Positions 54,611 to 58,461 of a stretch of DNA of 64,000 nucleotides are shown here, piece after piece (the first letter of the stretch is position 1; every line of letters starts with the position of its first letter). The stretch is from Eledone cirrhosa (taxonomy: Eukaryota), in NCBI GenBank assembly GCA_964016885.1, contig OZ024746.1:26722001-26786000 (forward strand), read 5' to 3'. The notes under the pieces were generated by a model. That model worked only from the letters and a program-made list of their open reading frames with translations, did no database searches and was not told the DNA's origin. Both the position numbers and the translations under genes were made by a program.

Positions 54611-55739
54611 TCACATGTATGATTTAAGTATTTGTTGAATATGGTTTATATGTTCAAGAAGAGTATGTAGTGTAACCATGGTAAACCATCGATGTTCAAT
54701 GATTGGAATATCTGTTGGTACAAAGAGACTCTCATTCACATCCTCATTGTTTTGGACTTTCGAAGACAACTGAAATATCTGAAAATAAAAGGATATATAT
54801 CAGGTTAAAATATACTCATATAATCTTACATATATATGTATATACAGATATGGTATTAACGCTCTTACGTTAGTTTGAGCTTTATACTTTATACATGTGT
54901 ATTATCAAAGAATTTGCATTACTTAAATGTTAGTAGTATAACTCCTATATAAAGTATCTACTGTAGAAACTTCATTTCATTATAGGAAATATCAAATCAA
55001 TTAACAATGGATATATTATATTATCAATACTTACTGGTAAACTTAGTAGAATTTTCAGATCAAATAAGTAATAAACAGTCTGTCTTAGATAACAATAGAA
55101 TATAGCATCTGATGTTCGTGTGAGTTTAGAACAAGCAGCTGGGTAGTAACACTGTGCTCCTATACGTGTGGCAGGAGCACACAGATTGTCATATTCTCTC
55201 TTCACCTGATTCTTCATCACAACAACATATTTATTAAGGGTTGTAGACATGTTGAACAGAGACATCTGTAATGAAGAATTGTGAGAAATTATATATTTCA
55301 GAATCACTGTCATTTCTATAAAATGTATTATGAGTTCATGAGACAATAAACATAAGATGTTCAAAGCTAATATATTGTTTTGTCTTAATTTTATGATATT
55401 GTGTTAATGATAGAAATATATATATACAAACCTTTAATAAATCAATGTTGTTGACGGTGATATTGTCCTGAATATTCATCTGTGGAAATTTAACATCCAT
55501 ATTGTGGAGTAACTTGTTTATAAATTGTGGACAGCTTTTAGCAAACAGCAATGGAGTATTGTTACACTGTAGAAAAATATATAACACTTTATGAGATAGG
55601 ATGGAGAGTCTGACACATGATATATGGAACAAATTATTTTAATTTAGATTATACTAATATATCTATTATAAATATTCATCTGAGTGAGAAAGTCAGAGTG
55701 ATAGAGACAGAGAGAGTGAGAGACAGAGAGAGAGAGAGA

Positions 55740-55779
<40 letters not shown>

Positions 55780-56734
55780 AATTGATAAAGATAGAAAAAT
55801 AAAGAGAGAAAGAGAGAGAGTAAGAGAGAGATAGTAAGAAAAGATTGGGAAAAGTAATGAATTCTTAACTTACATAATTAATCAAAGTATTGTTTACGGC
55901 TGCTGTGGTTCTTTTTGTTAACGTCAATGCCGTATCTATTTCAGTTTTTATATCAGATATATCAGATAATTCAGTTGTTGTTGTTGTAGATTGTATAGGT
56001 AATCCATGGATCAATGTCATCCATGTTGAGAGACATAAAACCAATGTATATTGCCAATCTGGAGGAGAAAAAAAGGTATAAAGATTTTATTAATTAAACA
56101 AAGAAATATTTAAACTTTATCAGTAATTAATACGAGAAATATTTTATTATATTTTAAGAGAAGAATTAGATTCTGGAACATTGATGAATATTTAAATTAG
56201 GAATATTGGGGATTTCTACACAGAAGCAGGAACTAAATCTTCGCGAAATCATACCCCACTGTGTAAACAAAATTATAGACAGATTTCATAATGAATTTCA
56301 AGATAATCAATAACTAAATTGATGACGAGATGCTTAGTTATGGAGAGCCTTAGACTATAGTATGGTTGTAGTGTACTACAAAAATAAACAAACAATATTA
56401 TAAACTCTCATTTAGCAGCAACTATATGGTTGTAGAACACTGAATGTCACCTCCCCAACTGTGAACATTCCTCCTACAACACACATAGATAGATAAAATA
56501 GAATAATTATAAGAAAAGAAAGAGAAGATACTGAAGAATAATCATTGGATAAATGGGAAAGTATGTGAAGAAAGACATCTTACGATTAAACACACGATCA
56601 CATAACTGATGGGGAATGGGTCATTTACCTGAGATATATATATATATATATATATAATTAATACATTAACTGAGAAAGGCTTAAGCGATACTCTGACCAA
56701 CTCCATCTCACTCAACAAACATTAGGATATACCA

Positions 56735-56820
<86 letters not shown>

Positions 56821-57079
56821 CAACTCAAACAGTAATATTACAGTGACTATAACATAGAATATTCTACTTACACATGTTGATCTTTTATAAATTTGTTAGA
56901 GGAAATATAAGTTAATGTGAGACGTCAGTAAATTTGCTTTGTACTCTTTTGAATACAATTAATAAATGATAGTCAATAGAATTATAATGTGACTTTATAT
57001 ACTTACCAGTGAAATTTATATATTTGGAAATACCGTTGATATATATATTGAAGATGGAGAATTTGAAAGTTCCCAACAT
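54611..57079 (-). CDS. Intact 5-exon gene (copy 5), predicted secreted long-chain four-helix cytokine-like protein, 263 aa
   Basis: Exons 57079-57007, 56058-55874, 55566-55432, 55265-55035, 54778-54611. All introns are GT..AG with pyrimidine tracts; phases 1,0,0,0. Protein: MLGTFKFSIFNIYINGISKYINFTDWQYTLVLCLSTWMTLIHG-LPIQSTTTTTELSDISDIKTEIDTALTLTKRTTAAVNNTLINY/CNNTPLLFAKSCPQFINKLLHNMDVKFPQMNIQDNITVNNIDLLK/MSLFNMSTTLNKYVVVMKNQVKREYDNLCAPATRIGAQCYYPAACSKLTRTSDAIFYCYLRQTVYYLFDLKILLSLP/IFQLSSKVQNNEDVNESLFVPTDIPIIEHRWFTMVTLHTLLEHINHIQQILKSYM*. The gene model is read directly; the cytokine call is inferred. Confidence 0.8.
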
Positions 57080-57138
57080 CCATAGTTTACTATTTGGATG
57101 AGATTAGATTTACTTTAAGTTGTAGAGACCGGCGTATC

Positions 57139-57146
57139 TATTTATA
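57139..57146 (-). promoter_or_regulatory. TATA box of gene copy 5
   Basis: TATAAATA 60 bp upstream of the in-frame ATG at 57079. Confidence 0.65.
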
Positions 57147-58139: not shown

Positions 58140-58461
58140 ATTTTCTCCAGTGTATAGGTGTGGTGATCTTCTCCAGTCTATAGGTGTGGTGATTTTCTCC
58201 ATTCTATAGGTGTGGGGATTTTCTCCAGTCTATAGGTGTGGTGGTGATTTTCTCCAGTCTATAGGTGTGGGGATTTTCTCCAGTCTCTAGGTGTCGGGGA
58301 TTTTCTCCTGTCTATAGGTGTGGTGATTTTCTCCAGTCTATAGGTGTGGTGATTTTCTCCTGTCTATAGGTGTGGTGATTTTCTCCAGTCTATAGGTGTG
58401 GTGATTTTCTCCTGTCTATAGGTATGGTGATTTTCTCCAGGCTATAGGTCTCGGGGATTTT
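58140..58461. repeat. 26-bp minisatellite, ~12 units
   Basis: Read directly. Confidence 0.95.

Follow-up and report, generated by a model that had tools for sequence, protein, structure and literature searches.

The long-chain class I helical cytokines of vertebrates are mostly single genes, and IL6, IL11, CSF3, GH and PRL share a layout of five exons with intron phases 1-0-0-0 and a small first coding exon. Among invertebrates, Domeless is a class I receptor that binds Unpaired (Upd) in Drosophila (PMC7378365, bioRxiv 10.64898/2026.10.26.761873), and a gp130 homologue has been placed in Spiralia, with IL12-alpha first appearing in fish (PMC9857879). The cytokines that have been reported from haemocytes of octopus comprise IL-17 and growth factors (PMC4199593), and JAK-STAT signalling is reported to be enriched in the octopus white body (PMC6522055). 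Here we describe a spliced gene of the octopod Eledone cirrhosa, located on the minus strand between positions 54,611 and 57,146 of a 64,000-nucleotide stretch of the genome (GCA_964016885.1, contig OZ024746.1, 26,722,001 to 26,786,000; hereafter the window, from whose first letter window positions are counted). An initial annotation, made from the letters alone, took its product for a class I helical cytokine and a candidate ligand of a Domeless/gp130-like receptor. Judging from models of homologues, the product almost certainly has the long-chain class I helical cytokine fold, and the gene belongs to a near-identical tandem array of 31 copies over 395 kb that the initial annotation overlooked.

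Predicted fold and relatives of the family

The protein that we folded was the Argonauta homologue P0002, which is 57% identical to the window protein and stands in for it, using an alignment of 20 rows. AlphaFold2 returned a model with a predicted local distance difference test score (pLDDT) of 80.5 and a predicted TM-score of 0.76, and three models scored near 80. The model consists of a signal helix, helix A (residues 27–63), an extra helix (72–86), a long loop, helix B (101–139), a Cys-rich linker, helix C (157–186), another long loop and helix D (205–231). These helices match the four segments that had been quoted as helices A to D, all of which are present in the window protein. When the model was compared with 48,161 chains, ranks 1–14 were all long-chain class I cytokines and ranks 1–28 were all helical cytokines, led by IL-11 (Z 15.2, root mean square deviation 2.6, 153 aligned), LIF (14.8), CLCF1 (14.5), IL-6 (14.4) and CNTF (14.4). 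The long-chain class I run continued down to growth hormone (GH; Z 10.2) and was followed by interferons and other cytokines; the first unrelated fold was Dps at Z 7.4. A second structural comparison placed CNTF at Z 17.0 (3.1 Å, 166 residues), G-CSF at 16.5 (2.7 Å, 162) and IL-11 at 16.0. Among hormone-type matches, prolactin reached Z 12.8–13.2 (164–169 residues), placental lactogen 12.7 and leptin 10.5. The modelled fold is therefore nearer to the gp130/G-CSF group (Z 14–17) than to prolactin (up to 13.2) or GH. Residues 28–232 of P0002 align sequentially to CNTF, G-CSF and IL-11 at Z 15–17, and these alignments imply an up-up-down-down bundle with long AB and CD crossovers. A class II helical cytokine of the interferon/IL-10 kind was rejected because interferons, at Z 8.9–10.1 against 14–17 for the long-chain class I proteins, were not the best match.

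The class I assignment was also supported by two further members of the family. An Atlas model of P0011, which is 33% identical to the window protein, matched cardiotrophin-1 with TM values of 0.65/0.71 over 180 residues. A language-model feature search with P0006 gave matches at 0.90–0.92 that carry IL6, IL12, Hormone_1, GCSF, IL11 and LIF_OSM annotations, ten of ten in one clan. Its top matches were two clusters, one mostly molluscan, in which 11% of members carry IL6, and one mostly arthropod; unnamed arthropod clusters scored 0.92 and 0.88.

Public protein searches for the family returned 6, 7 and 22 matches. Ten proteins were looked up, and the eight that carry a species name are all uncharacterized proteins of cephalopods (Octopus sinensis, O. 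bimaculoides, Argonauta hians and Sepia pharaonis); O. vulgaris members are also present among the database matches. Among its named relatives, the family is so far known only from cephalopods and without annotation. The nearest relatives are from Argonauta (57% identity) and O. sinensis (55%; 54–55% across Octopus), in agreement with the octopod affinity guessed earlier from the letters. Three long profile matches (P0023, P0026 and P0027; 765–1231 amino acids, many short stretches) were set aside as probable chance matches. The O. vulgaris models P0001, P0007, P0004 and P0005 are fused or truncated (335–368 amino acids, with some exons repeated), and this suggests that a tandem cluster has been mis-annotated in that species also.

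Gene model, transcript and promoter

The list of open reading frames and the composition profile revealed a periodic window with five gene copies in units of about 12 kb. Exons 2–5 lie on the minus strand with AG/GT at all ends (Table 1); the introns between them are in phase 0 and the acceptor of exon 2 is in phase 1. Of the five exons with canonical splice sites and phases 1-0-0-0 proposed initially, exons 2–5 and the phases stand, and the first exon probably does not. An ATG at 57079 with a donor at 57007 yields a 263-amino-acid product in the window gene, but this reading is open in one of the five window copies only and needs one extra (AT)n unit; in the other four this exon is two bases shorter and runs into a stop at the junction after 23 codons. 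Both the ATG and donor motifs are present in 27 of the 31 array copies, and the frame holds in 12 of these (the remaining four copies lack exons 1–3, the region, the ATG and the donor, respectively); the 263-residue model was rejected on that count. A Met-only exon starting at ATG 56875 gives a 240-residue chain with a 20-residue signal-like N terminus in all five window copies. It is open in all 30 complete array copies, 29 of them encoding 240 residues and one 239 owing to an in-frame codon deletion. The paralogues on C4 and at C6:12.4 Mb and C6:10.5 Mb likewise have a very short first coding exon, from one to three codons and a single further base, in phase 1, and the Met-only start agrees with the N termini of Octopus and Argonauta homologues and with those of P0002, P0006, P0008 and P0033. 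Because all 30 complete copies keep it open, as opposed to 12 of 27 for the alternative, and because the N termini of paralogues and homologues agree with it, the Met-only exon is probably the right coding start and 57079–57007 the wrong one. One observation runs the other way: the contig of sequencing run X4 (below), which covers neither candidate first exon, starts at a G (56059) just before exon 2, and this suits an unspliced intron 1 or donor 57007, not the junction 56872/56058.

Table 1 Features of the gene and its array unit in the window
Feature	Position	Strand	Remark
Exon 1, initial annotation	57007..57079	-	Probably not the coding start; frame hangs on an (AT)n tract
Exon 1, corrected, coding part	56872..56875	-	Met plus one base, phase-1 donor (GTAAGT)
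Exon 2	55874..56058	-	Signal peptide (cleavage after Gly20, by eye), Thr-rich spacer, helix A
Exon 3	55432..55566	-	Two cysteines (Cys64, Cys75), additional AB helix and long AB loop
Exon 4	55035..55265	-	Helix B, four-Cys B-C linker, helix C; best-conserved part of the family
Exon 5, coding part	54611..54778	-	CD loop, helix D, stop codon; X4 contig extends to 54556
Conserved element GTAAGTATATAA(AG)	56993..57006	-	Most likely a TATA box; alternatively donor of a non-coding exon
KappaB-like element GGTATTTCC	57026..57034	-	Candidate Rel/NF-kB site
Tandem copy	41269..43672	-	Intact, 2 amino acids different
Tandem copy	28972..31421	-	Intact, protein identical
Tandem copy	17134..19398	-	Intact, 3 amino acids different
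Tandem copy	5462..7855	-	Intact, 2 amino acids different
Inverted, internally deleted gene remnant	50073..50610	+	About 90% identical

The hydrophobic N-terminal segment ending in LIHG/LP is present in the corrected product, with a Kyte-Doolittle peak of 1.96 over nine residues and a small-residue cleavage site that is kept in homologues. The 220 residues after the predicted cleavage site contain the six cysteines initially described and five N-glycosylation sequons. The product thus appears to be secreted, with a mature chain in the range of about 170–220 residues of long-chain class I cytokines, and the sequence has their five-exon 1-0-0-0 layout. On this evidence, together with the model of P0002, the precursor is likely to have 240 residues, of which the first 20 form a signal peptide and the rest a four-helix bundle that is glycosylated and probably held by disulfide bonds.

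Reads across the splice junctions had been proposed as a check. The stretch is present in four runs of one sequencing study, which may be the source of the assembly; none of the four is recorded as RNA, and we compared the gene with three of them, X1, X2 and X4. In X4, a single 775-letter contig joins 55874/55566, 55432/55265 and 55035/54778 without a mismatch, so introns 2–4 are spliced there; the intron 1 junction was not seen in X4. These joints are absent from X1 and X2, which cover the introns and behave as DNA. We took X4 to be an RNA library because the spliced joints occur there while introns are covered in X1 and X2; provided that it is one, transcripts of one copy or more are spliced at the predicted places across introns 2–4. 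The depth of the X4 contig cannot rank expression. Collapsed contigs in X1 and X2 have a depth of about 120–160 as against 3–11 for variant contigs, which suits a multi-copy array and is not a copy number.

The TATA box named initially, near 57145, is altered or absent in two diverged copies. The element GTAAGTATATAA (57006–56995), previously read as the exon-1 donor, is kept 82–131 nucleotides ahead of the start codon in paralogues of three classes (the array, C4 and C6:12.4 Mb), and it is most probably the TATA box. It is preceded, at a distance of 26–29 nucleotides, by a GG-W2-3-TT(C/A)C word in five of the six promoters examined, again across three paralogue classes. The background for this word is 1.9% per 50-mer, and the pattern was chosen after inspection of promoters that are homologous. 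Its fixed place hints at immune induction, as a lead only.

A near-identical tandem array

Exon 4 was searched against the 3.0-Gb genome and gave 44 matches, made up of 39 loci and five fragments on C19. Thirty-one matches have 96–100% identity and lie within C6:26.45–26.85 Mb, and eight paralogues lie outside the array, four on C4, three at C6:12.4 Mb and one at C6:10.5 Mb. All 31 array copies were retrieved; they span 394.5 kb with a median spacing of 12.1 kb, and 28 share a strand, the three at the ends being inverted. One copy is truncated; the other 30 are complete and open and comprise 27 distinct coding sequences and 19 distinct proteins at a mean distance of 0.9% between array copies. 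Genome searches with the distant members P0011 and P0030 yielded nothing beyond the same 39 loci, and 100 kb of array flanks held no further family members.

Comparison of 29 equal-length array copies identified 14 synonymous and 23 non-synonymous variants, a ratio of non-synonymous to synonymous polymorphism (pN/pS) of 0.44 (binomial P = 0.016); without the most diverged copy the ratio is 0.37 (P = 0.007). These P values are rough, as the copies are not independent. The C4 and C6:12.4 Mb paralogues, with one full model each, are intact, 53–54% identical to the window protein and keep the five-exon 1-0-0-0 layout, and the ratio of non-synonymous to synonymous substitution rates between paralogues of 46–54% identity is 0.48–0.56 by a simple counting method. 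Judged from these codon comparisons, the gene family is shown to be under purifying selection.

We also built a tree of 23 rows, in which the array is represented by five copies; these group as a separate clade (99/97), and the close Octopus paralogues make up a second (95/100). This pattern suits separate expansions or homogenization in each lineage; the backbone is unresolved and the tree gives no order of events.

The array could be a neutral product of recent unequal crossovers, or in part an expansion of the assembly, around an ordinary cytokine gene, and we give this explanation somewhat less than an even chance. The copies differ by only 0.9% on average, the microsatellites, retroelement-like remains and inverted remnant of the unit could promote misalignment, and finding no stops among 37 variants is by itself not significant. 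Neutrality is at odds with the pN/pS of 0.37–0.44 and with 30 of 31 copies being intact; the C4 paralogue is also present in four copies, and Octopus has a separate clade of close paralogues. As for an assembly artefact, the 27 distinct coding sequences among 30, the variable introns and the inverted end copies all speak against it.

The inverted remnant (Table 1) fuses the end of intron 1 and 49 nucleotides of exon 2 to the end of intron 4 and the start of exon 5. Six such remnants occur in the window, with exon-2 pieces near 1071, 13363, 24923, 36891, 50510 and 62380, and a 54798/56010 joint is seen in the DNA-like runs because they join those parts of the gene. Each unit also holds, in the window at 51103–53065, frames that by eye resemble remains of a LINE-type reverse transcriptase and a GIY-YIG-like nuclease; three such frames had no Pfam match. 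At 48132–49562, one unit alone has a near-perfect inverted duplication, some 1.4 kb long and composed of 424-bp pieces, and a minisatellite with units of about 29–30 bp lies at 58140–58460.

Beyond the array, C6:26.879–26.903 Mb carries an SNF2-family helicase gene (SNF2-rel_dom and Helicase_C over cut-off) that can serve as a synteny anchor, and C6:26.421 Mb on the other side carries a 326-residue open frame with a DDE_Tnp_4 (Harbinger-type) nuclease domain. At C4:128.16–128.23 Mb, four paralogue copies stand about 20 kb apart, all open and 98–100% alike in exons 2–5; exon 1 was not found in the stretch examined around the first of them. An inverted pair of near-identical paralogues and a more distant one nearest the P0011 class lie at C6:12.41–12.45 Mb, and C6:10.51 Mb has a single further paralogue. 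On C19 (9923656–9924851), a 269-bp tandem repeat is present in 4.8 copies that are 98% alike, and each unit contains codons 1–36 of an exon 4 from the cytokine-like family, in diverged form.

Proposed function and comparison with known systems

We propose that the protein acts as a ligand for a receptor in a role that is mainly immune, injury-related or mixed, with a probability of roughly 0.7. The mature protein would be secreted, and its helices A, C and D, presenting sites I and II, would bind the cytokine-binding module of a Domeless/gp130-like receptor, which is a plausible partner. Binding would dimerize the receptor and activate JAK-STAT; because the site-III aromatic residue is missing (below), a simple receptor homodimer seems more likely than a hexamer of the IL-6 type. 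With less assurance, the gene may be controlled by Rel/NF-kB and encode a signal that is induced by immune challenge or injury, and the 31-copy array may have arisen from recent unequal crossing-over of a 12-kb unit and raise the dose that can be made quickly. A more specific version, in which the family is the cephalopod set of Domeless/gp130-like JAK-STAT ligands, inducible by NF-kB, with several octopod paralogue classes, a 30-copy dosage array and a receptor contact that dispenses with the site-III aromatic, is tentative and in our estimate has about one chance in three. If it holds, the array would parallel, in an invertebrate, the type I interferon cluster of vertebrates.

Several results weigh against this proposal, and the first concerns site III. 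The initial annotation had placed the site-III tryptophan of IL-6 and IL-11 at the start of helix D. The reported hot spot is Trp157 in IL-6 and Trp144 in viral IL-6 (PMC7378365), and a structure entry title gives Trp147 for IL-11. The alignments end with model residue 232 at IL-6 residue 183, IL-11 residue 173 and viral IL-6 residue 170; assuming an ungapped helix D, all three tryptophans fall on model residue 206, where P0002 has Thr and the window protein has Ile212. The conserved tryptophan of the RWF motif (210 in P0002, 216 in the window protein) lies four residues, one turn, further on. Its identity as the site-III residue was rejected, as the structural alignments are out of register by those four residues. 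The Arg before it would presumably match the Lys of the LIF/CNTF FxxK motif. As modelled, the protein keeps the long-chain cytokine fold but departs from the IL-6 family proper at one of the tests that define that family.

On the side of the fold, two of the five AlphaFold2 models of P0002 were weak (62.7), a single-sequence prediction for P0006 failed to fold (pLDDT 36.2), and the aligner comes with the caution that a common arrangement can lift helical bundles to Z 13–14. The structure prediction proposed initially as a check gave a cytokine bundle for the homologue, but Foldseek with the same model gave no match at an expectation value (E) of 0.001; its best value was 0.03, for G-CSF, and the best rows below threshold were G-CSF, LIF, prolactin and IL-27. 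A viral structure library also had no match at E 0.001. Identity to the structural matches is 7–18%. Pfam searches of 20 family members returned nothing over cut-offs, none of the 20 matched IL6, IL11, LIF_OSM, CNTF, GCSF or IL12 at E 1, the somatotropin/prolactin profile Hormone_1 had no match among them, and PDB profile searches gave no matches at E 10.

On the side of function, AU-rich pentamers show no enrichment in the 3' region (3 observed against 3.3 expected), and a shrimp preprint reports a non-helical ligand of Domeless, Vago4 (bioRxiv 10.64898/2026.10.26.761873), so that Domeless does not need a ligand of the helical class. No class I receptor or JAK was recovered in the genome by profile searches that are insensitive in intron-rich DNA: IL6Ra-bind, JAK FERM_F2 and STAT_bind gave no result, controls were not recovered either, and hence no absence is shown. 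A STAT linker exon exceeded the Pfam cut-off at C8:40.17 Mb. LIFR_D4 gave two weak places that were not convincing. Back-translated WSxWS patterns gave 116 and 229 places, 100 of each being listed, and the 1 and 20 examined among these were repeats, thrombospondin-like exons and short frames. The fn3 search was dominated by one giant gene, and six outlying exons were read. That gene, at C10:12.89–13.03 Mb, is titin-like, with over 120 FN3 exons on a single strand in a stretch of 150 kb. The best receptor candidate, with Interfer-bind over cut-off at C13:42.87 Mb, belongs to a receptor tyrosine phosphatase and was discarded; this phosphatase combines a kringle (PF00051) with an FN3 domain that passes the Interfer-bind cut-off.

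The same fold and kind of receptor could instead serve an endocrine or developmental role, as in prolactin, GH or leptin, or a patterning role like that of Upd1, which we regard as unlikely. Prolactin, placental lactogen, leptin and GH align to the model at the scores given above, Hormone_1 clusters are among the top feature matches, and the 3' region has no enrichment of AU-rich elements. GH and prolactin have no site III, as apparently is the case for the octopod protein (sites I/II and III as set out in PMC7378365). The gp130/G-CSF-group cytokines nonetheless score 2–4 Z higher, the kappaB-like word is at a fixed place in three promoter classes, and rapid divergence with lineage-specific tandem growth recalls the IL-17 genes of octopus (PMC8353272).

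A reading outside a ligand role, and an improbable one, is bulk secretion by a salivary or venom gland, skin mucus or an oviducal gland, in which a cytokine fold was co-opted, the array provides dose and the original receptor is no longer used. Thirty intact and almost identical copies are what is typically seen for genes whose product is required in large amounts, extra cysteines and five sequons suit a stable secreted product, the site-III aromatic is absent and the insensitive searches found no receptor. The family is however old, being present in Sepia, Argonauta and three Octopus species, with low-copy paralogues under purifying selection, and nothing found ties it to a gland. Convergence, in the form of an unrelated four-helix bundle or a model pulled towards the cytokine fold by a shallow alignment, is very improbable, for although there is no sequence homology, the alignment has 20 rows and the single-sequence fold failed, cytokines reach Z 17.0 against 7.4 for the first unrelated bundle, a second predictor agrees on the distant member P0011, and the signal peptide, length and intron phases fit independently.

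A role as receptor ligand remains our preferred reading, and the closest known proteins are those of the gp130/G-CSF group. CNTF, G-CSF, IL-11, LIF, CLCF1, IL-6, IL-27p28, OSM, IL-23p19 and IL-12p35 have the fold in common with the model over 137–166 residues at 2.3–3.7 Å, and the octopod protein resembles them further in its mature chain of about 220 residues and its five exons in phases 1-0-0-0. IL-6, IL-11, G-CSF and LIF also carry a signal peptide, as does the octopod protein. It differs from them in having an identity of 7–18% and no Pfam match, Ile or Thr for the site-III aromatic with a Trp one turn later, a longer B-C linker with four conserved Cys, an extra AB helix and about 30 near-identical copies instead of one gene. 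With GH, prolactin and leptin it has the superfamily fold in common (Z 10.2–13.2) and the lack of site III; its scores there are lower, it has no Hormone_1 match and its Cys pattern is unlike theirs, although their first coding exon is small as well.

Among invertebrates, Upd1–3 of Drosophila are secreted JAK-STAT ligands, the role proposed here for the octopod protein; Upd has no Pfam match to the family, and no Upd structure is among the listed structural matches, no direct comparison having been made. An oyster homologue of IL-12 p35 has been reported (Xin et al. 2021, PMID 34051203; via PMC12122919), and oyster CgIFNLP is described as a class II-like helical protein in PMC9756803, which lists no IL-6 or IL-12. 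Both are molluscan helical cytokine-like proteins too, and no named bivalve protein is among the ten matches of the octopod family that were looked up. The IL-17 genes of O. bimaculoides, 31–36 in number with tandem repeats, are likewise an expanded cytokine family, but they fall into 23 clusters (PMC8353272) as against a nearly homogeneous array. A literature search, with subscription journals largely outside its scope, turned up no publication about a helical cytokine of cephalopods, nor any that mentions six LOC identifiers belonging to the family, and three supplements of PMC9712504, as far as accessible, contain none of five such identifiers.

IL-17 has another fold and receptor class, and for a long-chain cytokine fold an array of 31 copies, 30 of them intact, is unusual. 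IL-6-like ligands of invertebrates are not new as an idea; the gene described here, with its corrected start, is set apart by the lack of a site-III aromatic, the four-Cys B-C linker and the 31-copy array. A spliced and selected family with the right fold makes it testable what triggers JAK-STAT in blood formation, infection and arm or nerve regeneration of the octopus, and the gene is a good candidate for a signal in cephalopod immunity or growth that has not been described before. Set beside the vertebrate genes, it would add a lophotrochozoan point with a vertebrate-like intron pattern to the view that long-chain cytokines are older than the protostome-deuterostome split.

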